NCBI GenBank assembly: GCA_964639985.1
Contig: CAZXHG010000012.1
Location: 1,254-65,253, forward strand
DNA length: 64,000 nt
Reading direction: 5' to 3'
DNA from: an uncultured Rickettsiales bacterium
Lineage (GTDB): Bacteria; Myxococcota_A; UBA796; UBA9615; CAYRNR01
In this document: in pieces, positions 36,576 to 56,989 of the stretch
How the letters are laid out: each line of letters begins with the position of its first letter
How positions within the stretch are numbered: position 1 is the first letter of the stretch
Program-made: the position numbers and the translations under genes
The notes under the pieces: model-generated
What the model was told of the DNA's origin: nothing
Database searches by the model: none
The model's input: the letters and a program-made list of their open reading frames with translations, nothing else

Positions 36576-37339
36576 CGTTGCCGCACCGCCCAGGGAAAGA
36601 ACACGCCCTTGAGTGCGTTGAAGATCTGGTCGTAGAGAACCCCGATCAACCCGATGGTCAGGATCGCGGCGAACACCTCCGCGGTGTTCAGGTACCTCTG
36701 CGACTCGATGATGACGTGGCCAATTCCGCTCGCCGCTGCCACCAGTTCAGCGACCACCAGGTAGGACCAGGCCCAGCCGATACACACACGTAGCGCGTCG
36801 TAGATGCCGGGGAGAGACGCCGGCAGCATGACGTGGGTCAGGCGCTGCAGCGGGGTCAGCCCGAGGGTCGACGACAGGTCCAGGTAGGTCCTGGGCACGG
36901 CCAGTGCCGCGTCTCGGACCATGACGGTCAGCTGAAAGAACACCCCTAGGAAGATCACCGCGATCTTCTGGGGGTTGCCGATACCGATCCACAGGATGCA
37001 CAACGGGACCAGGGCGGGCACGGGCAGGTAGCGGAGAAATCCGACCAGGGGATCGACGAACCGCTGAGCGCGGACGGAGGAGCCCGTCCAGAGACCGAGG
37101 GGCACTGCCAGCAAGGCGGCGAGAATGAAACCCGCCTGCACGCGGTAGATGCTGGCGCCGATGTCGTACAGGAAGTGCTCGTCGACGAAGAGCCGGAGCA
37201 GCGCCTGCACCACGGAGAGGGGGCTGGGCAGGAAGGTGGGCGGGATGGTGCCCGAAAGGGTGAGCGCCGTCCACACGACGAGCACCACACCGAACGCCAC
37301 GACCGCGCTGATCCTGTTGCTGTCGAGTCGCCGCGTCAT
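36572..37339 (-). CDS. ABC transporter permease (SsuC/TauC-like)
   Basis: Six hydrophobic segments. EAA-like region ALAVPRTYLDLSSTLGLTPLQRLTHVMLPASLP. 4-nt overlaps with neighbours. Confidence 0.8.
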   Translation of the reverse strand: MTRRLDSNRISAVVAFGVVLVVWTALTLSGTIPPTFLPSPLSVVQALLRLFVDEHFLYDIGASIYRVQAGFILAALLAVPLGLWTGSSVRAQRFVDPLVGFLRYLPVPALVPLCILWIGIGNPQKIAVIFLGVFFQLTVMVRDAALAVPRTYLDLSSTLGLTPLQRLTHVMLPASLPGIYDALRVCIGWAWSYLVVAELVAAASGIGHVIIESQRYLNTAEVFAAILTIGLIGVLYDQIFNALKGVFFPWAVRQR

Positions 37340-37351
37340 CTCCGTACACCC

Positions 37352-38341
37352 CTAGAGGTAGTCATGGGCCACCACCTCGGGCAGGGGATGGAAGGCGACG
37401 GTGACGCCGTTGTTGAGGTAGATGCGGTTGATCGAGGCCACCAGATCGAGGATCTCACCCGGGGCGTCCAGCGTGCCCATGATCGCCGCGCTGTCGACCG
37501 TGTCGAGGTAGCGCAGTCCACTGATCATGGCGGCGAATTCCTCCGTTTCCAGGCCGTAGTGTGCGGCCATCAGGGCGTTTGCCTGATCGGGGTTTTCGCG
37601 CCAGAAATGGACCGCGTCGTTCCAGCTGGCCACCACCGCCCGTACGTCGTCGCCGCGATCGCGGAGCGTGGATGGTCGGAAGGCGAGGACGTCGACGATC
37701 ACCGTGTCGCGTCCGGCTGAGGAGGCCAGCAGATGGCCTCCCTCGCGCTGCGCTGCGTTGGTCAGCCAGGGCTCCCAGGTCACCGCGGCATCGACCTTGC
37801 CGGCCACGAATGCGGCCCCGGCATCGCCGGAGTCCATGTGGCGGCCGTCGATGTCGTCGATGGTCATGCCCCCACGATCCAGGTGGTATAGCAGGAAGAA
37901 GTGGCTGGGTGTGGCGGGCTGAAAGGCAACCGTCCTGCCTCGCAGCGAGCCCACCGAACGGATTTCTTCCGCAGCGACGATGCCGTCGCCGCCCTTGCTG
38001 CGGTCCAGCAGCAGCACGGCCACCGACTCGATCCCCTGGTCCACCTGCATCAGGATCGTGTCCAGCGAGGTGGTCTGGCCGTCCACCTCGCCGGCGGCGA
38101 GGGCAGCCCGCATCTCCTCCGCGCCCTTCATCGTGAGCAGCTCGACCTCGACGCCGTGTGATCCGTAGTACCCCTGGTCCTGGGCCAGGTACAGGGGCGC
38201 GAACCCAACCCAGATGTCCGTCGCGATGCGGATCGGCCGGGCGCGGCCCGAGCAACCGTAATCCTCGTAGAGAACGGACAGTCCGAAGGTCCCGAGGACC
38301 GCGGTGAGGGCGAGGAACAGGGCCAAGCGACGGTGACGCAT
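37352..38341 (-). CDS. Periplasmic substrate-binding protein (NMT1/SsuA/TauA-like)
   Basis: Start MRHRRLALFLALTAVLGTFG (signal peptide) inside ORF 37352-38545. NMT1-like fold hallmarks IRIATDIWVGFAPLYLA... Confidence 0.7.
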   Translation of the reverse strand: MRHRRLALFLALTAVLGTFGLSVLYEDYGCSGRARPIRIATDIWVGFAPLYLAQDQGYYGSHGVEVELLTMKGAEEMRAALAAGEVDGQTTSLDTILMQVDQGIESVAVLLLDRSKGGDGIVAAEEIRSVGSLRGRTVAFQPATPSHFFLLYHLDRGGMTIDDIDGRHMDSGDAGAAFVAGKVDAAVTWEPWLTNAAQREGGHLLASSAGRDTVIVDVLAFRPSTLRDRGDDVRAVVASWNDAVHFWRENPDQANALMAAHYGLETEEFAAMISGLRYLDTVDSAAIMGTLDAPGEILDLVASINRIYLNNGVTVAFHPLPEVVAHDYL

Positions 38342-38609
38342 CGGGATTTCTCGGACAGGAGGATTCAGATCTCTTCCAGGTCGCCCTAGCGACGAGGGTT
38401 GCGCGCAGCATACATCGGGCTGGTGCGGGTTGCATCCAGCGCTGATCGACCCCCTCGAATCCCGCTCTCCCCCCGAGGAGTCGACGTCTGTTCTCCGGTA
38501 TACTGCCGCGGGCGAGGTGCGTGGGCGAGGGGCAGCCGTGGCCACGGTTGGCCGGATGCCGGAGCCTCAACCCCAGTGCCTCTCGTCAGGCGGGCGGATA
38601 CTACCGACG

Positions 38610-40480
38610 TGAAAGACCGACCGACCATACTCGGATTGAATGCCGTCTACGGCCAGAGTTCTGCGGCCCTGGTGCGGGACGGTCAACTTGTGGCCGCCGT
38701 GGAGGAGGAGCGGTTCAACCGGATCTCCCACGCCAAGGCAGCCGAGGTGGACAACACCCCCGACCTCCCCTATGCCTCCATCGACTACTGCCTGGACGAG
38801 GCGGGGATCGAGTTCGAGGACATCGATCTGATCGGCTACTCCTTCGACGTCGGTGTGCGCCGTGAGCAGCGAAGTCGGTTGATGGAGTACGGCCCGGTGC
38901 TGCCCGGGGGGTACAAGACACCGGAGGGCGAGCGACGATTCGAGTCGTTCGTGATGCTGGTGCCGGAACTGCTGGCCGCACGCTACGGCTTGCACCCCGG
39001 TGACGTCTGGCGCCGCTTTCGGTTTCTCGAGCACCACCTCTGTCACCTGGCAGCCGCGTACTACGCGTCCCCGTACGACAGCGCCGCGGTAATGGCGATC
39101 GACGGTATCGGCGAGGCTGCCACCGTCTCTTTCGCACGGGCCGAGGGAAACGCACTGACGATCCTGCGCCAGATCGACTACCCCCACTCCGTCGGGTTCA
39201 TCTGGGAGCTGATTACGTCGTTCCTTGGCTTCAGGGGGGACCACGACGAGAGCAAGGTGATGGGACTGGCAGCCTACGGGGATCCTGAGCGGTTTGCCCG
39301 CCAGCTGTCCACGTTCCTGCGCATCACCGCGACCGGAGTCGAGGTGAGCGGATTCAAGCGACAGGACCGGCAGGAACTGCTTCGCCGTGACTACCACGCA
39401 CTGGAACGATATCTCGGTATCCAGCGCCGCCTACCCTACGAACCGTTGGCCTTCGAGGGGTCGAAGCGCGATCACGCCGATCTGGCTGCGGCCTTGCAGC
39501 GGCGGACCGAGGAGGTCTTCCTGCACCTCGGTGGCCTGCTGCACCGGGAGACCGGCGAGAGCCGGCTGGCCATGGCTGGCGGCGTCGCCCTCAACTGCGT
39601 GGCCAATGCACGGTTGGCCGAAGAGGGGCCGTTCGACGAGTTGTGGGTCCAGCCAGCGGCTGGCGACGCCGGGACGAGCCTGGGCGCTGCCTTGCTACTG
39701 CATTGCCATCCCGATCCCCGTCTGGGCGCTGGTGCGGGCCGCGTCCGGATGGACAGCGTCTACCTTGGCCCCGAATTCTCCGATGCCGAGATCAGCAACA
39801 CGTTGTGGCGCTATCGTCTGGTCCACCAGCGAGTGGACGATCCGGCCCGGACCGCAGCCGAGTTGCTCGCCGATGGCAAGATCATCGGCTGGTTCCAGGG
39901 GCGGATGGAATTCGGACCGCGGGCGCTGGGCAACCGCTGCCTGCTCGCGCATCCGGGTCGATACGAGATGCGCGAACGGCTCAACCTGCGCGTCAAGCAT
40001 CGCCACCCTTTCCGTCCATTCTGCCCTACCATGCGCGCCGAAGTGGCGTCCGAGTGGCTCCAATCGAGCCGGCCGGCATGCGACGCGGCGCAGTACATGC
40101 TCGCCGCCTACGCGATCAAGGAGGGACGCCGGGCCGAGATCCCGGCCGTGGTACACGCCGATGGCACGGCCCGGCTACAGGTGCTCCAACGAGAGCAGAA
40201 CCCGCTGTACTACGAACTGATCCGGCACTTCGAGCGGCTGACCGGCCTGCCTTTCGTGCTGAACACTTCGTTCAACGACCGCGAGCCCATCGTCTGTTCG
40301 CCGGATCATGCGGCTGAGTGCTTCCTCAAGACCGACTTCAGCGCCATGTTCCTTGGCCACTACCTTGTCGAGGGCCCCAAGCCCTGGGAGCGAGAGGAGG
40401 GAGAGAGCGCCACTTTCAGCGAGGTGCTCGAGGACTTCTACCGCAGTGGCCACAAGAATCGTGGGGGGGGGGAGCTACCG
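38610..40480 (+). CDS. Carbamoyltransferase (NodU/CmcH family); as given it reads through in frame into the next gene
   Basis: Probable GTG start 38610 (VKDRPTILGLNAVYGQSSAALVRDGQLVAAVEEERFNRISH, the NodU/CmcH N-terminal signature); ORF opens at 38399. C-terminal carbamoyltransferase region ...VLNTSFNDREPIVCSPDHAAECFLKTDFSAMFLGHYLVEG. No stop before ATG 40481 because of a G10 tract. Confidence 0.8.
40463..40472 (+). repeat. G10 homopolymer tract at the carbamoyltransferase / HEPN-kinase junction
   Basis: Ten consecutive G read as GGG GGG GGG G-AG. With G9 the frame becomes ...AGC TAC CGA TGA, placing a TGA stop overlapping ATG 40481. Confidence 0.9.
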
Positions 40481-43174
40481 ATGAGCGATGAACGCTTCGT
40501 GGTCAGTGATCATGCGATGTTCACGGTCGAGCAGTATCCCTTGCCGATCGGGGACGCTGCCAGGGATTTCAATCAGGGTTTCAGGAGTCTGAGCGACCGG
40601 GAACTTCAGAAGCAATGGCGAGACCAGTTCCTCGACTACGTCAACATCGCGGAGGATTGTTTCAGGCTGGCAACCAACGTGATGTTGGCCGAACTGTCCG
40701 TACGAGGTGACCTGGCCGATCTGAGGGAGTTCTTCACCAGCTACATGACCGAGACCATGACACTCGGCAGGTGGATTGACTCCACGTTCATGCTGGCGCA
40801 GAAGCCCACGGCTGACCAGGCGCGGAGTGAGCTGGCCGGAGGACGCTCCAGCGAACCTCGCTTCAGGAACCTGGTCGTCATCGGGTTCCCACGGAAGCAC
40901 AGCCGGCGGCAACATGCCCTCAAGATGCGTGACTATCGCAACAAGGTCGCTCACCGAAAGGGAAAGAGACAGAAAGCCAGACAAACCCCGCTGACAGATA
41001 TCCTGCGGATGCGTGACATCATGCTGGACGTGATGTCCGGCGGATTCTCCTTCCTTCGGCACTTCACACTCATTCAGGTATGCGCAAACGGGCAATGCAG
41101 GTTCATCTCCGACCTGGGTTCCTTCAGGGAATCACCCGTGCCCATCGAGAAGTTGTTCAAACACAATGATCTTGAGGAACTGATCGACGTCAGCAGGAAT
41201 GATGATCTTCTGCTGTTCGACGCCGTCCATAACTCGATCATGACCTTGTTTCCGTTCGTGGTTCTGAATCCGGCAAACAAGAAGGTGCCTGCGGTTTCCT
41301 GTTTGCATACGATTCATGGCATCGATGATCCTGCAGGAGCGACCTTCAGGTATTTCGATGGCGAGACGGACGGAGAGGACTGGCGACCCTCGACTGACCA
41401 GGAGGATCGCGCCCGAGGGTGGTTGCGAACCGTACTGCAAGCGAAGGCGCCGCCCGCAACACGGGGGGTCTTCCTGAGAAATGACCGCTGGCGAGTGCCC
41501 GGGCTCTTCGAACAGAAGATGTACGATACCAGTAGGAGGCAGAACAGGGAGTTGGCGACTCTCACCAGCGATGTTATCCCGGAAGGTACTGATGAGGCAG
41601 ATGTTGTTGGAAAGCCGTACAGGGTTGACGAGTACTTGGGGGAAGGCGCGCACGCGATAGTGTGGGGTGTCAGTGAGGTCGACGACCTCAGTAAGCGCTA
41701 TGCACTCAAGGTACTGCGACTGTGCTACGGGGAGGACAAGGTGCTCTCCCGATTCAAGCGGGAGGCCCGTGTGTTGCGCCGGTACACCATGGACGACAGG
41801 TGGTCTCCCTATCTCATCGATTGCTATGATCACGGATTCAACGAGAATGGCATGCAATGTCAATTGCTCGAAAAGGCGAAGTGGTCTCTCAAGGACAAGA
41901 TCGAGGAGTACGACCGAAGAGGAAACGAGTTGGCGGGGTGGAGCATCCCGCGGTGCATCCGTGAGTTCGATCGGTGCCGGTCAGAGCATCACGCGCGAAA
42001 CGTCGACCTTCTCGTGTCGGTTTTCTTGCGGCTGATGTTCGCCCTGTCGTGTGTCCGGAACATCCTGAGTGCGCTGGAGAAACTGCACGAAGGTGGCGTC
42101 GTGCACAGGGATATCAAGCCAGCGAATATCCTGTTCCTCCAGAGAGGCCAGATCAAGCTTGCCGATCTCGGCGCGTTGCACATTGAGAAGGAGGACTTTG
42201 AACAGACGCCTCTGGACAACATGGGGTCGACCCAGAGAAGCGAGATCATTGGGACCCATGGCTACATGCCACCGAACAGTTTCGAGTTGGCCGAGCCCAG
42301 GAATTTCAAGGCGGATGTCTTCTCTACAGGTGTCGTATTTCGAGAGATCCTGTTCGGGCTGCGTGTTACACCTGAGACCTATTTCAGCGACAGTGAAAAG
42401 GAGGTCAGGGAGTTCGGCAAGCTAGATGACCTGATCGTGGAGCAACTCGCATGGGACGGCGAGATGCTCGTCAGCGGGCTCGTCCAGAGCGCCACCAACC
42501 GCAACAAGGAGCGGCGGTGGAGTTCAACGCGGTTCCTCGACGAGGTCGTTGAATTCGAGAAGAAGTACTGCAAGAAGCTGATGCTGTGGGCAAAACGTCT
42601 GGGGTACTCCCAAGAGGGTACGGGGGCCCTGTTCGTCAGGGCGCTCACCAAGATTGGATTCGAGAACAAGACAGGACGCAATCACTGTTTCCTGTTGCCC
42701 AAGCACCCCGAAAGGGGCGAAACCAGGGAGTGTGTATTCAGGAGGAATGTCTCCAGCTTGAAGTCAACCAGTGTTGCCGCCAGGTTGTACACAAAATACA
42801 ATGTTGGCTCGCAGCAAGGACAGTTGCCACCGGACGCTGACGAACTGGACGTTCTCGAATACCTGGTCGAACACTCGGAAGAGTGCTTCACCGACCTGAT
42901 CGAGCTGGTCACCTATATGTTGGACACCTGTACCGGCTTCTACAATGACTGTCCGGCGCATGAGAAGTCCCGGAGGAACATCTCCAGGCTGCTTAAGAAC
43001 AGGAAGTACACGGACACGAATCCCGCGAAGGAAAGGGTGCGGGAAGTGATCGAGCCCGAGTCCGATGTGCATGGATACCAAGACAGACACCCGCGGCAGG
43101 AGGCCGGCGAAGCCCTCATCCACGCCGTGATGTTCGGCGGTCTCGACCAATCCGTCGAGCCGCAGGAGAGATGA
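40481..43174 (+). CDS. HEPN-like (Rx4H) domain fused to a Ser/Thr protein kinase domain, with unknown middle and C-terminal regions (897 aa)
   Basis: ATG 40481 (MSDERFVV). N-terminal ~165 aa helical with MRDYRNKVAHRKG (Rx4H, as in Abi_2/Swt1/KEN HEPN nucleases). Kinase: glycine loop LGEGAHAIVWG, Lys in YALKVLRL, catalytic HRDIKPANILF, DLG, GTHGYMPPN. Markedly lower GC than flanks. Confidence 0.6.
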   Translation: MSDERFVVSDHAMFTVEQYPLPIGDAARDFNQGFRSLSDRELQKQWRDQFLDYVNIAEDCFRLATNVMLAELSVRGDLADLREFFTSYMTETMTLGRWIDSTFMLAQKPTADQARSELAGGRSSEPRFRNLVVIGFPRKHSRRQHALKMRDYRNKVAHRKGKRQKARQTPLTDILRMRDIMLDVMSGGFSFLRHFTLIQVCANGQCRFISDLGSFRESPVPIEKLFKHNDLEELIDVSRNDDLLLFDAVHNSIMTLFPFVVLNPANKKVPAVSCLHTIHGIDDPAGATFRYFDGETDGEDWRPSTDQEDRARGWLRTVLQAKAPPATRGVFLRNDRWRVPGLFEQKMYDTSRRQNRELATLTSDVIPEGTDEADVVGKPYRVDEYLGEGAHAIVWGVSEVDDLSKRYALKVLRLCYGEDKVLSRFKREARVLRRYTMDDRWSPYLIDCYDHGFNENGMQCQLLEKAKWSLKDKIEEYDRRGNELAGWSIPRCIREFDRCRSEHHARNVDLLVSVFLRLMFALSCVRNILSALEKLHEGGVVHRDIKPANILFLQRGQIKLADLGALHIEKEDFEQTPLDNMGSTQRSEIIGTHGYMPPNSFELAEPRNFKADVFSTGVVFREILFGLRVTPETYFSDSEKEVREFGKLDDLIVEQLAWDGEMLVSGLVQSATNRNKERRWSSTRFLDEVVEFEKKYCKKLMLWAKRLGYSQEGTGALFVRALTKIGFENKTGRNHCFLLPKHPERGETRECVFRRNVSSLKSTSVAARLYTKYNVGSQQGQLPPDADELDVLEYLVEHSEECFTDLIELVTYMLDTCTGFYNDCPAHEKSRRNISRLLKNRKYTDTNPAKERVREVIEPESDVHGYQDRHPRQEAGEALIHAVMFGGLDQSVEPQER

Positions 43175-43177
43175 CCG

Positions 43178-45193
43178 ATGCTGAATACACGTGGAATCCA
43201 GTACCCGGATGACTACCCGCTCGCGATCCAGCGCCTGCAGCAGGCTTTGGTGATGCTGCGCGAGACGAGGGTCGCCCTGCTGGACAAATGGAAGCGCGAC
43301 AACCAGAAATTCCAGGACGAGTTCGTGGTAAAGGAGTCCGGCGGCACGGGTGGCGAGGACGTGCTGCACCTGCCCTTCATCTACGGACTCGAGACGCTGC
43401 TCATGCCCATCGGGTTGATCACGGCGGAGTGCGCAAAGCGCAAGCGGTTGGTGGAAAGCCTGGATGTGCTTGTGCCTGCGCTGAAGGACTTCCGAGTCGA
43501 CGACATCGACGAGAACACGATCAATGATATCAACGGCCTCGTGAAGCAGTTCGACCGGGAGATCGGACCGGCTGTACGCGCCGTCGACTACGAAGGTCTC
43601 AACGCACAGCCGTACTTCAACAAGTGGAACGACGATGCCAACGCATGGGCTACTGCGCTGTTTTTCGATGCCACGGACTACTTGAACTCGGCGGGCCTGA
43701 TCAACCCCGAGCAGTACATCGAACGGGTGAACAACCTATCGATGCTGCTCAAGAAATTTCTCTTTGCGAAGTACGTTGTCGAGTGGAAATCTGACCTGGA
43801 CGAGAACGTCCAGTTGTTCGGATTGACCTGGTACTTCAGCGACGAGTCCCGGCGACGGATCAGTCGATATTTCCAGAAAAGCGGATCCGACTTCGACGGC
43901 CCCGTGGTCCAGGCGTTCATCGAGGACTATTTCGTCTGCGAGACGCGGGCATTCTGCTCCAGGGCCGTCCTGGCGGTCTACGATGTGATCTACGACACCT
44001 TCGGCGATTCGGACATCGCGACCGACGAGATCAAGAAGCTGGTAGGCAGGATCGGGGCGAGGTTCGCCAAGGACCTAGCTCACCGCTATCTCCAGGACAT
44101 GGATAACTCCATCGAGCGAGCCTACTTCGACGATCTGTACCGCACCGACTATCTGGTACAGCTGTGGGGCGTGTACACGTCCTGCCTACACACGGGCATC
44201 ATTGCCGAGAGCCAGGGAGGGGAGGTCGAGATCGATTTGCTCGTCCGCTACCACGACGAGTTCTTGAAGCCTCTGCTCAAGACCATTCGGAGGGAGATTC
44301 GGGACGATCACTCACCCCTGTTCACGACGGTGAAGCCGTTCCTGATCTGGCTGGACGAGCCTGCAGAGATAGAGCCCGCGGACGTCCATCCGGAAGAGAC
44401 GGTGGAGAAGTTGGGGGAGGACCGTTGCCTGGTATTCCCCTACGTCTCCCTGCTCCCGATCATGTTGCGGTCGCTGGCCAACTACGCTGGTGCCCTGAAG
44501 GACATCAAGGATCCGGGGGGCAAGCAGAACGTCCGTCGGATGAGGAACGAAGCCCTCGATTGGATGCACGAGGTCCTGGAAGGTATGACCCAATTCGCCA
44601 TCTCGGACGGGGACGAAGCGGGGCTGTGGGCGTTTTCCGGGCAGTACGAACTGGCCTACACCGCATCCATCGCCGAGGCGCTGACGACCTATGCTTCGCA
44701 GTGTTTCAACGAGGTGGTGGATCTGGGGAGGACCCGGATCGTGGACTTGGCAGAGCCGTTGAGGAAGGCAGGATCGGCAGCTGGAGCGGTCGTATCCGAG
44801 GCAGACTCGGAGGCCGTGCGCGCGTTCAAGGAATTCCGCAAGGTTCTCGACCTGCAGGTCCGACGGATCGTTGCCGAGGAGTTGGACGGTCGTGATCTCC
44901 AGGGGCGGTCAGGTGGGAGCAGCCAGTGGATGGAGATATTCTTCGATATCATCGAGAACAAGGGCAACATGGCGCCTCACTCCAACGACGCCCTGCAGGC
45001 GATGAGGGATCTCATCAGGCTGTCCAAGCGGCTGGATCGGCTGCGGGGGCGCGGAGAACCGGAATGGGAGCAGCTGCGGGATAAGATCAAGTCGGGCTAC
45101 TTCAACAACGAGATAGCCTATGACGTGCTGACCCGGGAGTACCATGGCGACATCGACGACCTGCTGAAGAACAAGACGGACAAGACGAAGTGA
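43178..45193 (+). CDS. Hypothetical protein (671 aa), no recognisable domain; middle gene of the low-GC island
   Basis: Starts 4 nt after the stop of the HEPN-kinase gene. Uninterrupted ORF in the low-GC region. Its TGA overlaps the GTG of the next gene. Confidence 0.55.
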   Translation: MLNTRGIQYPDDYPLAIQRLQQALVMLRETRVALLDKWKRDNQKFQDEFVVKESGGTGGEDVLHLPFIYGLETLLMPIGLITAECAKRKRLVESLDVLVPALKDFRVDDIDENTINDINGLVKQFDREIGPAVRAVDYEGLNAQPYFNKWNDDANAWATALFFDATDYLNSAGLINPEQYIERVNNLSMLLKKFLFAKYVVEWKSDLDENVQLFGLTWYFSDESRRRISRYFQKSGSDFDGPVVQAFIEDYFVCETRAFCSRAVLAVYDVIYDTFGDSDIATDEIKKLVGRIGARFAKDLAHRYLQDMDNSIERAYFDDLYRTDYLVQLWGVYTSCLHTGIIAESQGGEVEIDLLVRYHDEFLKPLLKTIRREIRDDHSPLFTTVKPFLIWLDEPAEIEPADVHPEETVEKLGEDRCLVFPYVSLLPIMLRSLANYAGALKDIKDPGGKQNVRRMRNEALDWMHEVLEGMTQFAISDGDEAGLWAFSGQYELAYTASIAEALTTYASQCFNEVVDLGRTRIVDLAEPLRKAGSAAGAVVSEADSEAVRAFKEFRKVLDLQVRRIVAEELDGRDLQGRSGGSSQWMEIFFDIIENKGNMAPHSNDALQAMRDLIRLSKRLDRLRGRGEPEWEQLRDKIKSGYFNNEIAYDVLTREYHGDIDDLLKNKTDKTK

Positions 45194-46224
45194 ACATCGT
45201 CGCGTATTCGTACAAGGGCGGCTCCGGAAGGACGACCGCGGCGATGAACATCGCCGCCAACCTCTTCCGCCGGGGCAAGATCGTTTGCTGCATCGACTTC
45301 GACATCGGTGCGCCAGGCATGCACATGATCCTGGAAACGACCATTCCGCCGAGGGAAGGCGAAACCGACCTGATCGCTCGGCGGCTCGGTGACGTCTCCC
45401 CGCTTGGAGTGCAGCATTTCTTCAACAACCGTTACCCGCGCCCCGGCGTGGACGAGAGTACGTTCGTCGAGCAGGCGGTGGTCGACTACAAGGAGCATTA
45501 CGCCCAGCTCGCCTGGACGGAAGACGATGCACTCAACAAGAGAGACATGACGCAGGACGCCTTCGACCAGGGCGAGTTGCTGTACCTGGTCGCCTCCCCG
45601 GTTGCCGAATCGATTCGAGCCCTGGATGCCCAGAAGTTCGACATGATGGGATTCCGGCGCCGCTACCGTTCCCTGATGGAGCGGGTCGCCGACTACATCA
45701 ACGACAAGCGCGGCACCGACGAGGTGAGTGCCGAGGACATCTACTTCGTTCTGGATTCGGCGAGTGGCTTGACGCCGTTCAGCCTGCCGGTCCTCTTCCT
45801 GGCGCACGTGGTGCTCGTGTTCTTCCGGTGGAGCCACCAGCACATCGTCGGTACCGAACAGAATGCCGAGATCCTGCACCACAACCTCGACGAGCGGGTC
45901 GACTACTCGAACTGCCGCATCTACAAGGTGGGCTCCTGTTATGTCCCGGCCGGGGACAGCGATACGCTGAATCAGATGAAAGAAGAAGGGGATCTGGCGG
46001 CACGCCGCATCTTCGATCGGGAGACAGAACTTCGGACGGCCCTGGAGTCCGACCGGATGATCCGCTTTATCGATAGCATCCCCGAGCACCCCGCGTTGAA
46101 GTACTACGAGCGAATCGTCGCGCTGGCGATCGACGCGAAGACGAACTACGGCGGTGTCCGCGAGGCGCTGGACAACATCTGCGCACAGCTGGAAGACGAC
46201 CGACTGGTGCTCGACATCGATTGA
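45190..46224 (+). CDS. ParA/MinD-like (SIMIBI) ATPase with degenerate P-loop
   Basis: Deviant Walker A YKGGSGRTTAAMN (KGGxGKT expected; P-loop Lys replaced by Arg). A-prime-like CCIDFDIGAPGMH. GTG start overlaps the upstream TGA (GTGA). Confidence 0.6.
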   Translation: MNIVAYSYKGGSGRTTAAMNIAANLFRRGKIVCCIDFDIGAPGMHMILETTIPPREGETDLIARRLGDVSPLGVQHFFNNRYPRPGVDESTFVEQAVVDYKEHYAQLAWTEDDALNKRDMTQDAFDQGELLYLVASPVAESIRALDAQKFDMMGFRRRYRSLMERVADYINDKRGTDEVSAEDIYFVLDSASGLTPFSLPVLFLAHVVLVFFRWSHQHIVGTEQNAEILHHNLDERVDYSNCRIYKVGSCYVPAGDSDTLNQMKEEGDLAARRIFDRETELRTALESDRMIRFIDSIPEHPALKYYERIVALAIDAKTNYGGVREALDNICAQLEDDRLVLDID

Positions 46225-46253
46225 ACTCGACGACTCTAGCCAGTCGTACTATC

Positions 46254-47282
46254 TCAGCGGACAAAACGGCCCCCCTGGCCGACGTCGTCCGGCGGCGGAT
46301 CCACGCGGTGCAAGCCGCTATCGGCGGCCGCGGCCGCCAGCGTGGCCACCAGTTCGTCGGCGGCGGCAGGCAGGTCGTCGAACAGGTAGCGAGGCAGGAA
46401 CGGGATCAGCTTGAGGGTCAGGTCGGCGTCGATGGCCGCCAGTCGGGCGGCCACAGCTCGGACCTCGAACACGTCGATGTAGCCGGGGACGACCAGGAGT
46501 GAAGGGCGGATCAACTCGACCCGCTCCGCGGGACCGAATTCCGCCCGAAGCCGCTCGATGTTGCGCCACACGCGAGTGTTACCTGTACCGGTGAGGGCAA
46601 GATGGACGGGTTCGGTGCCAGCCTTGAGACCGATGTTGAAGCCACCGCCCGAGTCGTGGACCAGGTGGGCGAATGGCAGCAGGAGATCCCCCGGCGCCGT
46701 CAGGTTGGTCTCGGCGCAGATACGCATCACCCGGTCGGCGTAGCGTTCCCGAACGAGCACGGCGATGCGTGTCACGGCCGCCAGCTGGACATCTGGTGTG
46801 CCCCCACAGAAGCAGACGCACGTCGTACGGTCGTCGATCCAGTCGAGGATCTCGTCGTCGGTGAATCGGGGCTTGGCCGTCTCGGCCATCGTCTTGTGGA
46901 TCCAGTCCTGGCAGAACAGACAGTCGAAGTTGCATCCCGCGGTGAACACCGCGAGGTTACGGCAGCCTGCCTCGACACCGGGACTGACCGCGAAATCAGG
47001 GTACCCGCAACCTGTGGTTCCGGGACACTGCCACGAGGCGATGCAGTTCGCCGGGTGATCGTCGTAGAACCCCATGGCGACCAGCATGTCGTCTTCCGGC
47101 ACAGGTCGTACCGGATCCGGCATGTCGCCAGATTGCCTCAGAGCCTGCCTTCGAGCCTGCTCCACGAGGGGAAGGGCCTGCTTAGGGTCGGTGCGCACGC
47201 AATCGACGCAGCATCCCACCGATCGAGCCACGATCACATCGTGACGACCGCACAGGGCACAGGGGAGAGGGGGGGCGTCCAT
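46254..47282 (-). CDS. Radical SAM enzyme (PflA-activase-like) with N-terminal Cys-rich zinc-ribbon-like motif
   Basis: Start MDAPPLPCALCGRHDVIVARSVGCCVDC. Radical SAM CX3CX2C in AVFTAGCNFDCLFCQDW. Glycine-rich VCFCGGTP. Confidence 0.7.
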   Translation of the reverse strand: MDAPPLPCALCGRHDVIVARSVGCCVDCVRTDPKQALPLVEQARRQALRQSGDMPDPVRPVPEDDMLVAMGFYDDHPANCIASWQCPGTTGCGYPDFAVSPGVEAGCRNLAVFTAGCNFDCLFCQDWIHKTMAETAKPRFTDDEILDWIDDRTTCVCFCGGTPDVQLAAVTRIAVLVRERYADRVMRICAETNLTAPGDLLLPFAHLVHDSGGGFNIGLKAGTEPVHLALTGTGNTRVWRNIERLRAEFGPAERVELIRPSLLVVPGYIDVFEVRAVAARLAAIDADLTLKLIPFLPRYLFDDLPAAADELVATLAAAAADSGLHRVDPPPDDVGQGGRFVR

Positions 47283-47286
47283 CGAT

Positions 47287-47979
47287 CTACCAGAATCCCT
47301 TCCACCACATCGCGAAGATGCTCTGCCACCAGTAGTCCAGGGCCTGGAAGTTCGGCGTGCCGGGAACGCCGGACGTTGCTTCGATGGCAGTCGCAGTTGC
47401 GGCCGTGTCGGCGCCTGCGAGCAGTCGTGTCGGGATGGCAGCGTGTCCGGGATACGGCTCGAACCGGGTGTCCTCGTCCGAATCGAGTTCGGCGCGGGTC
47501 GCCGAACCGAAGAAACGGAAGACGAGCTCGCGCATCTCGCCGTGCAGCTGCGTACGCCGGGCACGGCGCATCGCCGACCACCGCGGTATCTCAGCGCAGA
47601 TCAGATCTGCCAGCCGGCGCGCGGCGAGGTCGCGACGGCCTGGGCGGTATCGCCACTGGTCGGCGACGGAGGCGGTCGCGATGAGGCCGCCCGTCTCGCT
47701 GGCCTGTGAAGCGAGGTCCTGGACGAATTCCGGCCAGGGGCCGCATACGATCCAGGCGCCAGTGTCCGAGAGGTAGGACCGGGTGTTTGTTCCGTGGTCG
47801 AGTGTCACCCGGCCCGGTCCGTCGAGTACCTGTTCCGCAGAACACGCCGATGCCCATGCGCCGGGATCTTCGAGCAACAGGGTCGTCAGATGATGATTGG
47901 CCACCACGACGTGTCGGACGTCATCGTGGTCTATGACCTCGTAACGGCGCCCCTCAACCTTGACTAGGCGAAGCGGCAT
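47287..47979 (-). CDS. Hypothetical protein (230 aa), Trp-rich C-terminus
   Basis: ORF between two radical SAM genes, overlapping both by a few nt. No recognisable motif. Confidence 0.45.
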   Translation of the reverse strand: MPLRLVKVEGRRYEVIDHDDVRHVVVANHHLTTLLLEDPGAWASACSAEQVLDGPGRVTLDHGTNTRSYLSDTGAWIVCGPWPEFVQDLASQASETGGLIATASVADQWRYRPGRRDLAARRLADLICAEIPRWSAMRRARRTQLHGEMRELVFRFFGSATRAELDSDEDTRFEPYPGHAAIPTRLLAGADTAATATAIEATSGVPGTPNFQALDYWWQSIFAMWWKGFW

Positions 47980-49415
47980 GCATCCACCTCGGCGCCGGGG
48001 CCTCTCTCCAGCCGTTGCAGTCGGCCTAGTTCTTCCCGTGCCCTTTTTCGGAGCAAGCCCACGTCCAGATTCGGTCCGTCACCCGTCTGGCTGGTGAACA
48101 GGTTGGCTCTTCCGGTAGTGCTCACCCATCGCTTCGAGAGGATCGATCCAGTGTAGGCCTCGAAGAAGAGCTTCTCCACGTCAGACGGATCGATGCCTGG
48201 ATAGCGAACTACCGACCGCACACCGCTGTACAGCCGGAGGTCGGTGGAGGCCAGGCGGTCCTCGGCCAGGAGAGCCTGGAAGAGCGGCGTTCCGGGAACC
48301 GGGATGAGCAGCGTGAACACGTTGACGCAACCGCGATCCGTGAATTTTTCGGTAGCCCTCAGGCGGCGGTCGAGGCTGGTAGCATCGTCATCGGGCTCGC
48401 CGAGCAGGAACGATGTGGTGGGGAGCATGTCTGCCGCGACGAGCCGGTCCACAGCTCTGAGTGCGGTATCTGCGGCGAGTCCCTTGCTGTACCTGGCCAG
48501 GTTGGACTCCTCCAGCGACTCCACCCCGATCCACATCATCCGGCACCCAGCCTCGTGCAGGAGGGGGAGTAGATCCGCGTGTTGGACCACCCAGGCCGCA
48601 TGCCCGAAACACCACCAGCGGATCTCAAGCGACCGGTCGATCAGACCGCGGCAGATCGCCTCGACGCGGTCGGCACGGACGGTGAACGTGTCGTCCCAGA
48701 TAGACCAGTCGTGGATACCGTGCGTGACCACGCCGTGTTCGACTTCATCCAGCACGGCATCGATCGGTCGGGAGACATACCGTCCCTTGAAGTGTGCCGG
48801 TGTCGCGCAGAACACGCAGCGATGTGGGCAGCCTGTCGCGGTCAGGATGGGGAGGACCGGGAAGACCTCGCTTCCGGGGTCGTCGAGATAGAGGGAACGG
48901 GCGATGCCATAGCTCTCGATCCCTGGAACCAGGCAGGAGAGGCCATCCGCGCGTCGAAATCGAGGGCCATTCACGGGGCTGGGGGCCAGGTGGGAATCCA
49001 TGGCGGCTTCATCTGGAACCAGCCCATCCACGCTCCGGGCATCCTCTGCCGCCAGATCGGGAAAGCGGCGCGGCATGTATCCACCGAGCAGGATCTTCAC
49101 CGTGGGCAGCACCTCTCGTATACCGTGGGACAACTCGAGGTCGTAGGGATATGCTGCGGCGCCCATGAACACGTGTAGGTGGAGTTCCGGGAACGCTCCG
49201 ACGAGCACCAGGTCCGGATCAAGATCCGCCACGCGACTCGCGAGTGTCGGTGCGTCCTCGCGGAGCATCTGCCCGTCGAGGACCGTGACGTCGTGACCAC
49301 GATCCGTCAGCTTGGCGGCAACGCGGCAGGCGCCGTACGGCGGGCTGCTCATCCCCTGCGCGTAGTAGAACCACGAGAGGGCGCGGTTCCAGGCGTTGAC
49401 GAAGACGATCCTCAA
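47964..49415 (-). CDS. B12-binding-domain radical SAM protein (class B)
   Basis: N-terminal Rossmann-like B12-binding region (RIVFVN..., DLVLVGAF, KILLGG). Radical SAM motif LTATGCPHRCVFCATP. Confidence 0.75.
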   Translation of the reverse strand: MRIVFVNAWNRALSWFYYAQGMSSPPYGACRVAAKLTDRGHDVTVLDGQMLREDAPTLASRVADLDPDLVLVGAFPELHLHVFMGAAAYPYDLELSHGIREVLPTVKILLGGYMPRRFPDLAAEDARSVDGLVPDEAAMDSHLAPSPVNGPRFRRADGLSCLVPGIESYGIARSLYLDDPGSEVFPVLPILTATGCPHRCVFCATPAHFKGRYVSRPIDAVLDEVEHGVVTHGIHDWSIWDDTFTVRADRVEAICRGLIDRSLEIRWWCFGHAAWVVQHADLLPLLHEAGCRMMWIGVESLEESNLARYSKGLAADTALRAVDRLVAADMLPTTSFLLGEPDDDATSLDRRLRATEKFTDRGCVNVFTLLIPVPGTPLFQALLAEDRLASTDLRLYSGVRSVVRYPGIDPSDVEKLFFEAYTGSILSKRWVSTTGRANLFTSQTGDGPNLDVGLLRKRAREELGRLQRLERGPGAEVDACRFA

Positions 49416-50326
49416 CGACCATCCCCCTCGGGACCAGGAACAGCTGCCAGCCAGGACCGACTGAAGGCCAGCGTCTCGTCGCGACGGGGGTAGAGACGGC
49501 GGAAGTCGGCCCCCCGCGCGACGACGGCCTCCCGGGCGATGTGTCCGGGAAGCAGGGACCGGATCTCCCGTTTGATCCTCTCCTCGTCGAACGGTCGACA
49601 GGAGAAGAGATCGAGGTAGGCTTCGTCGCGTTCGGGATAGGCGTGCAACGTGATGTGGCTCTCGGCGATCATCGTCATCGCACTGAGCACCGGTCCGTGG
49701 GATGCTGTCTGGTTTCGCACCAGGTACGGGCGCATGATCGGCGTCATGCCCACGGCAGAGGGCAGCCGGTCGAACAGGTCGAAGAGCCGGTCCATGTCGT
49801 CGGGGCCATCGTACTCCTCGATATCCAGGAACAGGTGGGGTCCGAAATCGCTCGCGGGTTGGTGCGGTCGTTCGCTAGGGCTGTTCTGGGTCCGATCGAG
49901 CACGCCAAATTTCACATGTCGGCACGGGAACGCGTCCTGTAGGGCTGAGGCCACCTCCTCCTCGTCGTAGGGATCGGCGCTCACGAGGTCGAAGAAGAAT
50001 TCCTCGCGAAAGGGGAAGGTGTGCAACGTGATGTGCCCTCCGGCCAGGAACAAGAACGAGGAGATGCCTGCGTCCTCCGGCACGACCCCGTTGTAATAGG
50101 GGAGTATGAACGGCGGCATGGCCGGCCGTAGCCCCAATTCGGGGGGGACCTCTTCGAGGAATTCGTACACCAGATGGATGTCGTCGAAACGGGATCGGTA
50201 CCCCTGGATGCCGTCGTAGTGGAGGTGCTTCAAGTCGGTCTCCAGGCTGGGCGTGATCCGGCTGGATGCTGGGCGGCGGTAGGGCCTCGGTTGCCCGGGG
50301 GGTGGTGTCTGGTGAAGCCTGCCCAC
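49412..50326 (-). CDS. Tandem-duplicated S-adenosylmethionine decarboxylase-like (pyruvoyl-dependent) protein
   Basis: Two AdoMetDC(SpeH)-like halves. Half 1 has LFLAGGHITLHTFPF and lacks the processing Ser. Half 2 has MIAESHITLHAYPE, the canonical ES-H self-cleavage/pyruvoyl site. Confidence 0.6.
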   Translation of the reverse strand: MGRLHQTPPPGQPRPYRRPASSRITPSLETDLKHLHYDGIQGYRSRFDDIHLVYEFLEEVPPELGLRPAMPPFILPYYNGVVPEDAGISSFLFLAGGHITLHTFPFREEFFFDLVSADPYDEEEVASALQDAFPCRHVKFGVLDRTQNSPSERPHQPASDFGPHLFLDIEEYDGPDDMDRLFDLFDRLPSAVGMTPIMRPYLVRNQTASHGPVLSAMTMIAESHITLHAYPERDEAYLDLFSCRPFDEERIKREIRSLLPGHIAREAVVARGADFRRLYPRRDETLAFSRSWLAAVPGPEGDGR

Positions 50327-50404: not shown

Positions 50405-50550
50405 TCAGTCGTCGTACCACAGCGGTATCGAATCGGCCCTCAGGTCGTGCTTGGTGAACCCTGCCAGTTTGGCGTGATCGAAGTGCCAGCGCCGATCAGC
50501 CCTCCGCGCTAGGTCCAGGTGCAGGTAGCCAGCGTCAACGAAGATCATCC
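50405..50550 (-). CDS. Candidate small peptide (47 aa), possible leader/precursor of the radical-SAM cluster
   Basis: ATG preceded by AGGAGGAGG. Peptide MIFVDAGYLHLDLARRADRRWHFDHAKLAGFTKHDLRADSIPLWYDD. The ORF also opens further upstream at GTG 50641. GC3 bias weaker than in neighbours. Confidence 0.25.
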
Positions 50551-50637
50551 TCCTCCTCATACACGATCTCCCAGCGAAGCCCTCGGCGGGTCCGCCACTG
50601 TTGCGAGCTGCAGTATAGACAAGGTCCGGGGAGAGGT

Positions 50638-50907
50638 TCACCCCTCCTGGCTACGGTCAGGAGGAGAGGAGCCTGGAGTACCGCCCAGCCACTCCACAAC
50701 CACCAACCCCAACGGCCCCGCCATCGTCCACACCCCATCCGTGACCATGTCCCACACCTGGTAGCCCAGCCCGAAGTCCTTCCCCACGGCCCAGAAGTCC
50801 CACCAGTCGCGGGCCTCGCTCACGGACTGGATCAGCATCGCCGCCCCGAGCGCCCACAAACAGGTATGGGCGTGCCTCCATGCGACAGCGCGCACCAGCA
50901 GGTACAC
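50638..50907 (-). CDS. Small Trp-rich hypothetical protein (89 aa)
   Basis: Strong GC3 bias. One hydrophobic segment. Its stop overlaps GTG 50641 of the next ORF (GTGA). Confidence 0.3.
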   Translation of the reverse strand: MYLLVRAVAWRHAHTCLWALGAAMLIQSVSEARDWWDFWAVGKDFGLGYQVWDMVTDGVWTMAGPLGLVVVEWLGGTPGSSPPDRSQEG

Positions 50908-50998: not shown

Positions 50999-51739
50999 TC
51001 ACCGCACGATCTCGTGTCCCAGGATGGCCACGGTGTCCACGCGCAGGCGCAGGCGCATGTTCTTCTTCTGATCGGTCTCGAACAGCAGGTCGGGGCAGGC
51101 GGACAGGCGCTGGCCCTCGCGCTCCAGCAGGCGGGTCCACCATTGCCGCAGGCGGCTGCGGCTGGTGTAGACGCGGCTGCCCGGGTTGGCCGTGGGGCTG
51201 GTGGGGCCGCCGTAGGCCTCGAGCACCTCGAGCTCGTCCTCCCACGACAGCCAGCCGAAGTCGCGCTGGCCGTCGTAGCACGACGCCAGGGAGCGCAGCA
51301 GGGTCCACTGCTGGCGGCGGATGGTGTTGTCCTCCACCGGGTGGGCGCCGATGGCGATGCGGACCAGGCCGGGCTCGGGCAGGCTGAGGCGGCGGATGCG
51401 GGTGCGGCGGGCGGTGGACTCCACGCCCTGCGGCTCGGGCAGGCCGCGCAGCACGAGCCGGTGGGAGCCGAGCTCGACCACGTCGTCCGGACCCACGTAC
51501 ACGGTAGCGGCCTCCAGCCAGTTGCCGTTGTACAGCGAGCCGTTGGTGGAGATGTCCTGCAGGCACCAGCCGTTGCTCCAGCGCAGCACCAGGTGCAGGT
51601 GGGACACCGTGCGGCCGTCCAGGCGGATGTCCGCGCGCGCGGACCGTCCCATCAGCAGGTAGGGATCGTCCTGTGGGACGCGCCACTCCTCCAGCTCTCC
51701 GTCGACCTCGATCTCGACCACCATGTCCATGGGCTTCAC
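50999..51739 (-). CDS. FHA domain protein
   Basis: FHA core LLMGRSARADIRLDGRTVSHLHLVLRWSNGWCLQDISTNGSLYNGNWL. Confidence 0.75.
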   Translation of the reverse strand: MKPMDMVVEIEVDGELEEWRVPQDDPYLLMGRSARADIRLDGRTVSHLHLVLRWSNGWCLQDISTNGSLYNGNWLEAATVYVGPDDVVELGSHRLVLRGLPEPQGVESTARRTRIRRLSLPEPGLVRIAIGAHPVEDNTIRRQQWTLLRSLASCYDGQRDFGWLSWEDELEVLEAYGGPTSPTANPGSRVYTSRSRLRQWWTRLLEREGQRLSACPDLLFETDQKKNMRLRLRVDTVAILGHEIVR

Positions 51740-51754
51740 CCCTCCTGTCGTTCG

Positions 51755-53857
51755 TCAGCGTCGGTCCAGCTCGCATTCGCGCGCTGACGCGGTTCGTTGC
51801 AGGCTCTTGGCCTCACCCCACGGTACGCCGCGCTGCTCGACGTACTTCAGGCAGCGGTCGCTCTCGCTGTGCTCGCAGGCGAGGAAGGACTCGGCCACGT
51901 CGTCGCACCCCAGCGCGACCATGGTCATGTAGCCGCACATCTCGGCCGTGCCGCCCACGGGCTCGTCCGGGGGCACCGGGATGGCCGGGCCGCCCAGGGC
52001 GCTGCACTCGCGGTGGCCGGAGCGGTGGATGTGGGAGACCACCCGGTCGAAGGTACGGCCGCTACCGTCCCAGTTGTCCAGCATCCAGCGGCTCCAGTGA
52101 AGCCATGCGTCCATGTCCCGGGCGGACGCGGCCGCGCGGGTGCAGTCCTCCACCAGCTCCAGTCCGTTGATGGGGGCGGAGGGCAGCGCAGGTTCGGCCG
52201 CGTCGCAGGCGTCGAGCGCTGCGCTGGCGTGGGCCAGGGCGGCGGCCGCGTTGCCGTCGATCCACTGGCGGTTGGCCTCCGAGGCCTCCATCATCACCAG
52301 CACCCACCACGCCTCCACCTGCAGCCACTCGTCGTCGGTCAGCTCGATCGCGGCCGTGGCCCTCTCCCGCGCCTCGTCGCACCAGGCGCTGCGGTCGTCT
52401 ACCCCGGACTTCAGCAGGCGGCAGGCAGCGCCTGTCAGGGTGGCACGGGCCAGCAGGGCCTCGGGGGTCTCGCCCGCCTCCAGGGCGGCGAGGGTGAGCA
52501 GGTCGCCCTCCTCGAAGCGCTCCTGGGCCCAGCGCGCGTTGGTCAGGTGCCAGCCCTGCTGCCAGATCCGCGCCAGGGTGAGCATGCCCTGGACCTCGGC
52601 CGGAGCCTGCTGGATTGCGCTGGCCTCGGTGTCCGCGATCAGGCTGGCGAGGTACGTGGCGCCGTTGTGCTCGTACACGGTCTTGTGCTCCTCCAGCCTC
52701 GCCTGCAGCGTGTCCACCTGCGCCTGCGCCTCCTGCTCGTGGCGGTGCCGGTCCTGGTCCCGGGCCGCGCCGTGGCCGGCGAGGAACGCCGCGACCACGG
52801 CTGGCGGCGCCAGCAGGACCAGGCCGACCAGCAGCCGGACGGCCCAGCGGGCCAGGCCGGTTGCGGGTTCGTGAACCGTGGATTCACGGGGTTCTTCGTG
52901 CGCGGGTGTCTCGCCGCTGTGCAGCGAGCGGTCGTCGACCGGGTCCGTGTCCGTGCCCGCGGACGGTGGTGTGCGCGGGTCAGGGACCCGGGTGGTGAGC
53001 GCCTCCACCGAGTCGTTGGCCGGATCGCCGAGGTCCGCAGCCTCGCCCGCGGCAGCCCGGAGCACCTCGGCCGTGGGTGGGCGGTCCTGCGGCTTCTCCC
53101 GCAGGCAGGCCCGCATGATGCGATCCCAGGGGGACTGCAGCGGAGGCGGGAAGCCGGGATCGCCCGGGGGCTTCTCGCCCATCAGCAGCGCGACCATGCA
53201 GCCGAACGAGAACAGGTCCGAGGCCAGGTAGGCCATGGACTTGAAGTTCTGCTCGGGTGCGCCGTATCGGCGGGTGAGCAGGAAGATGGGCGACGGCTGG
53301 CCCGCGTGGCCGACCTGGCGCATGGTGTCGAAGTCGATCAGGTGCACGCCGTGGGCGGTCACGATCACGTTCTCGGGCTTGACGTCGCCGTGCAGGGCGT
53401 TGAGCGCGTGTAGCCGGTCGAGCACGGCCGCGAGCTGGCGCAGGATCTCGCCCCGCTGGTCGCGAGCCATGCCCATCCACACGCGGTGCAGGCTCTGGCC
53501 CTCGACCCAGGCCAGGGTGACGTAGGGCAGACCGGTGCCATCACCCAGCGGGGCCAGTCCGCCGTCCAGGATCGGGGGCAGCCCCTCGATATCGCCGATG
53601 GCGGCCCGGACGCGGTAGCCCTCGAAGATCTGGGGGAGGTCGGCCGGGAGGGACGCGGTGGCCCTGGACTCGCCGCGGGCTGCACTGCGCACGAGGGGCT
53701 CGAGCTGCATGTCCAGGGGTACGTGCGTGATCCGGGTCAGGGCGTCCCCGCCCTGGAATCGGGTGCGCAGCACGTCCCGTCCCTGGTCCATGTCGCGCTT
53801 GACGATGTCCAGCAACCCGTAGCGGTCGTCGAGCTGGTAGGGCAGCAACGTCTTCAT
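51755..53857 (-). CDS. Ser/Thr protein kinase (non-RD), single TM, large C-terminal extracytoplasmic helical domain
   Basis: Catalytic loop HGDVKPENVIV. IDFD. YGAPEQ. TM LLVGLVLLAPPAVVAAFLA. Confidence 0.8.
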   Translation of the reverse strand: MKTLLPYQLDDRYGLLDIVKRDMDQGRDVLRTRFQGGDALTRITHVPLDMQLEPLVRSAARGESRATASLPADLPQIFEGYRVRAAIGDIEGLPPILDGGLAPLGDGTGLPYVTLAWVEGQSLHRVWMGMARDQRGEILRQLAAVLDRLHALNALHGDVKPENVIVTAHGVHLIDFDTMRQVGHAGQPSPIFLLTRRYGAPEQNFKSMAYLASDLFSFGCMVALLMGEKPPGDPGFPPPLQSPWDRIMRACLREKPQDRPPTAEVLRAAAGEAADLGDPANDSVEALTTRVPDPRTPPSAGTDTDPVDDRSLHSGETPAHEEPRESTVHEPATGLARWAVRLLVGLVLLAPPAVVAAFLAGHGAARDQDRHRHEQEAQAQVDTLQARLEEHKTVYEHNGATYLASLIADTEASAIQQAPAEVQGMLTLARIWQQGWHLTNARWAQERFEEGDLLTLAALEAGETPEALLARATLTGAACRLLKSGVDDRSAWCDEARERATAAIELTDDEWLQVEAWWVLVMMEASEANRQWIDGNAAAALAHASAALDACDAAEPALPSAPINGLELVEDCTRAAASARDMDAWLHWSRWMLDNWDGSGRTFDRVVSHIHRSGHRECSALGGPAIPVPPDEPVGGTAEMCGYMTMVALGCDDVAESFLACEHSESDRCLKYVEQRGVPWGEAKSLQRTASARECELDRR

Positions 53858-53870
53858 CGGAGACCCTCCC

Positions 53871-56975: not shown

Positions 56976-56989
56976 CTCGCCGATGCGGA

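Follow-up and report, generated by a model that had tools for sequence, protein, structure and literature searches.

A divergent ParA/MinD-like ATPase of the KGGxGR clade and its conserved gene cluster in an uncultured Rickettsiales bacterium

The nearest described relatives of the ATPase examined in this study belong to the ParA/MinD superfamily (SIMIBI class), and two lines of earlier work bear directly on it. In ParA of the F plasmid, the substitution K120R leaves ATP bound but not hydrolyzed, and it also blocks the ATP-driven conformational change (bioRxiv 10.1101/2024.03.17.585406). MinD/ParA-like domains have also been described as effectors of conflict systems dependent on nucleoside triphosphates, in which they are "predicted to be inactive" and are coupled to S/T/Y kinase domains and TIR-AP-ATPases (Kaur, Burroughs, Iyer and Aravind, eLife 2020, PMC7159879). 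We analyzed a stretch of 64,000 nucleotides (hereafter, the window) from an uncultured Rickettsiales bacterium (GenBank assembly GCA_964639985.1, contig CAZXHG010000012.1, positions 1,254 to 65,253 of the forward strand), which encodes a ParA/MinD-like ATPase with Arg in place of the P-loop Lys. Judged by its sequence, this Arg characterizes a clade that databases already list, and of which the window ATPase appears to be a new and divergent member. By analogy, its most likely role would be that of an ATP-latched dimer switch acting on the partner protein encoded directly upstream, a reading that we consider moderately probable. The more interesting result is the uncharacterized, cross-phylum gene cluster that surrounds the ATPase. 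The features of the ATPase open reading frame (ORF) are given below by coordinates in the window, strand and description.

45190..46224, +, KGGxGR-clade P-loop protein of ParA/MinD fold; 344 residues, GTG start, isoelectric point (pI) 4.9, acidic C-terminus
45214..45237, +, deviant Walker A KGGSGRTT, residues 9-16; K9 is the signature Lys and R14 stands in place of the P-loop Lys
45295..45303, +, switch I D36-F-D38, counterpart of the MinD DxD; aligned to MinD 'DADIG'
45745..45768, +, Walker B/switch II FVLDSASG (D189, G193); aligned to MinD 'ILVDSPAGI'
45820..45855, +, clade-specific motif FFRWSHQHIVGT (R213, Q217, H218, G221, T222); strand and helix after Walker B

When a profile built from 21 relatives was aligned with the solved MinD structure (4v03), R14 (codon AGG, 45229..45231, +) matched the P-loop Lys, which bears out the first-pass annotation in its reading of the Walker A sequence as KGGSGRTT, with the signature Lys kept and Arg at the P-loop position. 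The possibility that the real Walker A lies elsewhere was ruled out by the same alignment, in which R14, D36/D38 and D189 are all in register. With regard to the features that define the superfamily, the signature Lys, the switch-I DxD and the Walker B Asp are present in the protein, and the P-loop Lys of GK[ST] is absent. The three-dimensional fold is that of ParA/MinD, and its AlphaFold2 model is confident (pLDDT 86, pTM 0.89). At least three independent assemblies, two of them from JGI metagenome samples and one an NCBI/ENA contig, encode an identical protein, and its relatives carry the Arg, so a sequencing or base-calling error behind it is excluded. The GTG start is correct as well, because homologs retain the N-terminus. 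A public gene call for this protein (P0233, 326 residues) begins at an internal ATG (Met19, 45244) and loses the whole Walker A; automated annotation can conceal the KGGxGR motif in this way.

The first-pass annotation had left it to an alignment to decide between a conserved GR state in a subfamily and a sequencing error with GKT in the homologs, and the former was found. A word-seeded search of 5.8 billion proteins, which is biased to shared words, gave 88 relatives, all of which had KGGSGR. An index-free, exhaustive HMMER search of 1.84 billion cluster representatives (50% identity) resulted in 979 matches at E ≤ 0.001, and KGGxGR was present in 145 of the 150 best of these; the remaining five were four fragments without an N-terminus and a single RGGTGKTT sequence. 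Among curated families, the window ATPase matched NCBIfam NF047398 best (74.6 bits, E 1.3e-20), over positions 5-184 of the 190 in the profile; the name of this family, "KGGVGR-motif variant AAA ATPase", is the label of a domain model without a tested function. All 21 aligned relatives matched this model, which was their top-scoring family too, and a member of ~285 residues from Coriobacteriia (L019) passed its cutoff with 97.4 bits. The KGGxGR motif, the retained signature Lys and the fold class are common to NF047398 and the window ATPase, which is, however, ~60 residues longer than the ~285-residue stand-alone members that pass the cutoff and has extra helical inserts. On its sequence, it is probably best described as a divergent relative of NF047398 and not as a certified member. 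The Arg-for-Lys P-loop is thus the signature of a very large, database-named ParA/MinD-like branch, no member of which had experimental data in the literature searched. No paper naming the KGGxGR motif or SCO2523 was found in the literature search; the latter gives its name to NF040564 ("SCO2523 family variant P-loop protein", ParA-like), which matches the N-terminal 50 residues of the window ATPase (E 1.3e-10) but reaches only 41 bits against a cutoff of 200 bits, over residues 1-50, and differs in gene neighborhood. Among sequenced plasmids the sole match was a distant 624-residue "ParA family protein" of Rhizobium, and the phage collection gave no match. The plasmid gene (L053, 8495..10872, Rhizobium phaseoli pRphaN831c) comes straight after a gene for an MqsA-family antitoxin and lies beside an SbcCD-like pair.

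Conservation was assessed in an alignment of 133 representatives, one per 50%-identity cluster. Residues S7, K9, G10, G11, G13, R14, D38 and D189 were invariant (133/133), D36 and G193 were each kept in 132 of the 133, and a motif after Walker B, FFRWSxQHxxGT, was also conserved (G221 in 129, Q217 in 123, H218 in 92 and R213 in 87 of the 133 representatives). R14 is therefore a trait of the clade, neither an error nor a one-off. Because all 133 representatives keep the signature Lys, the second Asp of switch I, the Asp of Walker B and the Arg, the nucleotide pocket is under selection and not decaying. More than one motif should have been lost in a dead ATPase; here, all but the Lys is fixed, and so is the Arg. 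The conserved pocket would fit the "nucleotide-sensing" role suggested by the first-pass annotation, although a loss of catalysis would not be proven thereby. From the order of secondary-structure elements, the clade-specific motif with R213, Q217 and H218 may be the counterpart of the partner-binding face of MinD/Soj.

The statement of the first-pass annotation that a Lys-to-Arg change usually abolishes hydrolysis has a precedent in canonical ParA, namely F ParA K120R (bioRxiv 10.1101/2024.03.17.585406). That protein is an engineered loss-of-function mutant, whereas in the clade of the window ATPase the Arg has been fixed by selection. In a rival explanation, the ATPase would be fully competent: Arg would take over the function of Lys, and the protein would cycle in a MinD/MinE-like manner, with the upstream partner as activator, so as to position or pace the enzymes of the cluster. 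Such an enzyme would agree with the strict conservation of the remaining catalytic machinery, with R213, Q217 and H218 beside Walker B, which could compensate for the change, and with the large partner ORF adjacent in ~24 of ~33 loci; engineered Lys-to-Arg in canonical ParA abolishes hydrolysis, however, and we regard full competence as rather unlikely. It also counts against this explanation that, to our knowledge and in the literature searched, no fast P-loop ATPase with a natural Arg is known in the family.

The window ATPase is not a DNA-partition ATPase, and in this the first-pass annotation was right. Weak N-terminal matches to ParA and MinD models could suggest a conventional partition ParA, whether genuine or altered by an error in sequencing or assembly, but the scores were only 29 bits against a cutoff of 180 bits for ParA_partition (NF041546, N-terminus only) and 28 bits against 213 bits for the MinD model minD_bact (TIGR01968). 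The 64-kb window contained no parS-like site at ≤2 mismatches, and none of the genes called up to 10 kb to either side of the ATPase encoded a ParB family protein, in line with the first-pass annotation; there was no repeat array around the gene. Together with the same sequence in three assemblies and the Arg in relatives, these results refute this explanation. Unlike ParA/Soj, the window ATPase is acidic (56 acidic vs 38 basic residues, pI 4.9), and its composition makes it unlikely to be a non-specific DNA binder. It differs from MinD/FlhG/FleN and BcsQ in the Arg for the P-loop Lys and in the lack of a C-terminal amphipathic membrane helix: its C-terminus, ...AQLEDDRLVLDID, contains no basic amphipathic helix of the MinD type. 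Moreover, minC, minE and flagellar genes, which would be expected beside MinD/FlhG/FleN, are absent at the window ATPase, whose neighbors are a helical orphan and a radical S-adenosylmethionine (SAM) enzyme. The gene should thus not be called a partition protein.

The ATPase is part of a conserved 11-gene cluster (35805..50233), so the "island trio" to which the first-pass annotation had assigned it was drawn too narrowly. The other features of the cluster are as follows.

35805..38326, -, ATP-binding cassette (ABC) importer of NMT1/NitT-TauT type (Pfam); binding protein 37352..38326, permease 36572..37339, ATPase 35805..36575
38636..40484, +, NodU/TobZ-type carbamoyltransferase; 615 residues in the JGI copy, Carbam_trans_N E 1e-57, Carbam_trans_C E 1e-63
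40463..40472, +, G10 homopolymer; G9 in the JGI copy
40481..43174, +, Ser/Thr protein kinase; 897 residues in the JGI copy, Pkinase E 3e-22, separate gene on the JGI contig
43178..45193, +, orphan acidic partner protein of 671 residues, predicted all-helical; translationally coupled to the ATPase
46254..47123, -, radical SAM enzyme, activase-like; 289 residues (JGI call), open frame extends to 47564, Radical_SAM
47287..47979, -, conserved 230-residue protein between the two radical SAM genes; no family match
47964..49415, -, B12-binding radical SAM enzyme; B12-binding and Radical_SAM
49412..50233, -, AdoMet-decarboxylase-like protein (PF02675); AdoMet_dc E 4e-22

The gene most closely linked to the ATPase encodes the 671-residue partner, whose TGA stop shares 4 nucleotides (GTGA) with the GTG start of the ATPase. 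Pfam (even at E ≤ 10), NCBIfam and PADLOC gave no match for this protein. BLAST and jackhmmer searches identified homologs of the window type in seven sequences, only directly upstream of window-type ATPases, and the 5.8-billion-protein index, queried once with the partner sequence alone and once with a profile of six sequences, yielded nothing beyond the partner itself and P0231. A large upstream ORF is also common elsewhere in the clade: in ~24 of ~33 independent stand-alone KGGxGR loci, a same-strand ORF of at least 500 residues ends no more than 160 nucleotides upstream of the Walker A. Since the upstream proteins form several families without detectable mutual similarity, this rule is positional and is no proof of a common partner. 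Two comparisons by hhalign hit the same region, a faint repeat-like motif, '(G)W...Y.T.R.IEAL', which was too weak to use.

The same cluster was found in other genomes. The closest relatives of the ATPase, P0002 (39-42% identity) and P0003 (34-38%, from a metagenome-assembled genome (MAG) of Aminicenantes), are encoded in loci that contain this gene set, its order unchanged, on a single strand; at the P0003 locus, the ABC importer and a KAP-NTPase/pentapeptide gene are present as well. Additional clusters were detected among GTDB species genomes in three alphaproteobacterial MAGs (one of Hyphomicrobiaceae), a Sedimenticola MAG, an unclassified proteobacterium and a second Aminicenantes MAG. 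The order carbamoyltransferase, kinase, partner, ATPase was preserved in every locus with upstream DNA (the window, L004/L005, L013/L016, L015 and L017). The window carbamoyltransferase is 52-58% identical to those of L004, L013 and L015-L017, and homologous ABC transporters adjoin the cluster in L004, L015 and L017. Among the downstream genes, which in the window run convergent (-) to the ATPase, the activase-like radical SAM enzyme is 44-58% identical to its counterparts in L001, L004, L013, L014 and L020, the B12-binding radical SAM enzyme 35-47% identical in L001, L004, L014, L015 and L020, and the AdoMet-decarboxylase-like protein 45-49% identical in L004 and L020; homologs of the 230-residue protein occupy the same position in L001, L004, L014 and L020. 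Not every locus has the radical SAM set, although it is frequent: L017 has none of its genes within 10 kb. Some loci contain further components: a TIR_2 domain is N-terminal on the kinase protein in L013/L016 (L013 3926..7051), a TIR_2+FGE-sulfatase protein follows the ATPase in L017 (11064..12356), and a KAP NTPase is encoded in L004 (14429..16207, with pentapeptide repeats) and in L020. No paper on the combination of carbamoyltransferase, radical SAM and AdoMet-decarboxylase genes was found in the literature search.

Third-position GC was 0.73-0.88 for all eleven cluster genes and uniform across them; the flanking genes considered were two on the downstream side (50999..53857), the FHA gene with 0.96 and the second kinase gene with 0.92. 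This suggests that the whole 14.5-kb cluster, and not the trio alone, was horizontally acquired. Because third-position GC is uniform across the cluster, the dip in GC over the kinase, partner and ATPase genes reflects amino-acid composition and not a separate acquisition. Taken together, the four-gene core, the importer, the radical SAM set and the TIR, KAP and FGE extras suggest a horizontally mobile system of conflict or specialized metabolism.

The adjoining B12-binding radical SAM and radical SAM genes of the window, L001, L004, L014 and L020 also raise the possibility that the ATPase delivers a cofactor or metallocluster to the two enzymes, in the manner of NifH, BchL, ApbC/Mrp, Cfd1 or CooC. 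Such a function is very unlikely. No Cys reached ≥60% conservation and there was no conserved CxxC or other Cys pair among the 133 representatives; the one semi-conserved Cys (C250, in 'GSC') is missing in P0003, which belongs to the same cluster type. In addition, the core genes of L017 are accompanied by no radical SAM gene within 10 kb, such genes are missing from the loci of most other KGGxGR subfamilies, and ParA/MinD relatives outscore Fe-S carriers. The identity of the protein as an Fe-S carrier was rejected for lack of the conserved Cys.

The TIR, KAP and FGE genes of related loci lead back to the MinD/ParA-like domains of Kaur et al. (PMC7159879). The association with a kinase, plus the TIR, FGS/FGE and pentapeptide/KAP-type components, is a shared theme, and we infer that those domains belong to the KGGxGR clade, the motif not being stated in the text of that paper. 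In the vWA-MoxR ternary systems, however, they are fused to vWA or AP-ATPase proteins, whereas the window ATPase stands alone with its own upstream partner. The role proposed by Kaur et al. for the MinD/ParA-like domains of ternary systems (PMC7159879), that of jamming, would make the window ATPase a catalytically dead decoy, or an effector with a dominant-negative action: a division or partition ATPase, copied and inactivated, with which a conflict system would jam the MinD/ParA machinery of the cell itself. Besides the kinase-coupled domains "predicted to be inactive" in PMC7159879, the kinase gene two genes upstream of the ATPase, the TIR, KAP and FGE genes in related loci, a 496-residue KGGSGRTQ protein encoded straight after two TIR proteins (L012) and the F ParA K120R precedent are in line with a decoy. 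Yet K9, D38 and D189 are invariant and D36 nearly so over 133 divergent representatives, unlike in a dead site; an acidic ATPase without the MinD membrane helix would imitate MinD or a DNA-binding ParA poorly; the ATPase has a dedicated, co-translated partner of its own; and no vWA or MoxR gene, the defining core of the ternary systems, was found among the genes called within 10 kb of it. A decoy is therefore an unlikely explanation.

We instead favor the ATP-latched dimer switch. The ATPase, a soluble protein, would bind ATP and form the usual nucleotide-sandwich dimer via K9, and the Arg would make hydrolysis slow or dependent on a trigger, giving a long-lived ATP latch in place of a fast cycling motor. 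The output of the dimer would be to bind, assemble or gate the co-translated helical protein of ~670 residues, and the dimer and partner together would organize or license the carbamoyltransferase and the kinase (and the radical SAM enzymes where present). Partner and ATPase would then be the non-enzymatic pair of a four-gene core formed by the carbamoyltransferase, the Ser/Thr kinase, the partner and the ATPase. This reading is preferred on account of the motif register, the clade-defining Arg, the invariant pocket residues, the 4-nucleotide overlap, the position of the partner, the conserved gene order, the TIR/KAP/FGE extras, the lack of ParB and parS, the acidic protein, the third-position GC of the cluster, and the precedents of K120R and PMC7159879.

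Several points weigh against it. The papers found include no biochemical study of any KGGxGR protein, and slow hydrolysis, dimerization and partner binding are all deduced; by analogy with F ParA K120R, the Arg could even prevent switching altogether. The window ATPase, at 74.6 bits, lies below the NF047398 cutoff of 90 bits. The AlphaFold2 model of the partner, made from a three-sequence alignment, contains helices only and is unusable (pLDDT 38.5). No mutual similarity of the upstream ORFs was detectable (hhalign probability <10% for the partner vs four other upstream-ORF families), and the large upstream ORF shared across subfamilies may be an analogy only. The ABC importer and the enzymes would be equally at home in metabolism and in conflict, and PADLOC-DB 2.0 gave no system-level match among the cluster proteins scanned, the ABC transporter lying outside the scan. 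In that scan, the ATPase had N-terminal matches only, to candidate PDC-M28B (E 4e-11) and mad8 (E 0.004), and the kinase had generic matches to PD-T4-6 and mad6, with nothing for the partner, the carbamoyltransferase, both radical SAM enzymes, the 230-residue protein and the AdoMet-decarboxylase-like protein.

More tentatively, the KGGxGR ATPase and its orphan partner could be the regulatory core of an undescribed cross-phylum system with a carbamoyltransferase and a Ser/Thr kinase at its base and with interchangeable accessories (radical SAM and AdoMet-decarboxylase-like enzymes, the NMT1-type importer, and TIR, KAP or FGE proteins). Such a system might be a new one of immunity or conflict, or it might make a modified metabolite by a new route; the fixed Arg would be an evolved ATP latch or slow clock and not a defect. 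We regard this wider proposal as possible but not probable. If true, a natural family that selects the substitution used in the laboratory to kill hydrolysis would be a test case for re-tuned deviant Walker A switches, the conserved pairing with a large upstream protein would point to a concrete interaction, and the core of carbamoyltransferase, kinase, partner and ATPase, sometimes with TIR, KAP or FGE, might represent a system of conflict or biosynthesis that has yet to be studied.

Parts of the cluster also accompany other KGGxGR ATPases. In three Firmicutes loci (L031, 6454..14047; L041; L046), a TIR-like protein, an ORF of ~820 residues, a KGGAGR ATPase, an ORF of ~770 residues and an AdoMet-decarboxylase-like protein were found. 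The latter are 28-32% identical to the window protein and are encoded ~3 kb downstream of the KGGxGR ATPases; the link between AdoMet-decarboxylase-like protein and ATPase therefore recurs outside the cluster type of the window. A different but related context was observed for a subfamily of ~285-320 residues in Acidobacteria and Thermoplasmata (L011, 2741..13288; L027, L045, L018 and L025), in which the order of the L011 type is AraC, NMT1 binding protein, ABC ATPase, an ORF of ~700 residues, the ATPase, a Peptidase_C25-like protein, permease and methyltransferases. The same type of importer thus travels with different subfamilies of KGGxGR ATPases.

In the window itself, the G10 homopolymer joins the carbamoyltransferase and kinase into one ORF of 1591 residues (38399..43174). 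The JGI contig (L051) is identical to the window over 21 kb save one G, and its G9 results in separate genes of 615 and 897 residues that overlap by ATGA, as in every other locus. The fusion in the window is either an assembly artifact or slipped-strand variation. On the other side of the cluster, the ABC importer is flanked by an ORF of 1191 residues without a Pfam match (32092..35667, -). Two small called ORFs of 51 and 66 residues, the second of which is Trp-rich, lie between the AdoMet-decarboxylase-like and FHA genes (50405..50560 and 50638..50838, -) and could be radical SAM substrates or gene-calling noise. Beyond the cluster (50999..57554, -), genes for an FHA protein, a 700-residue Ser/Thr kinase and an FtsW/RodA-transpeptidase were found, which look like a cell-wall and signaling operon of the host, unrelated to the cluster.

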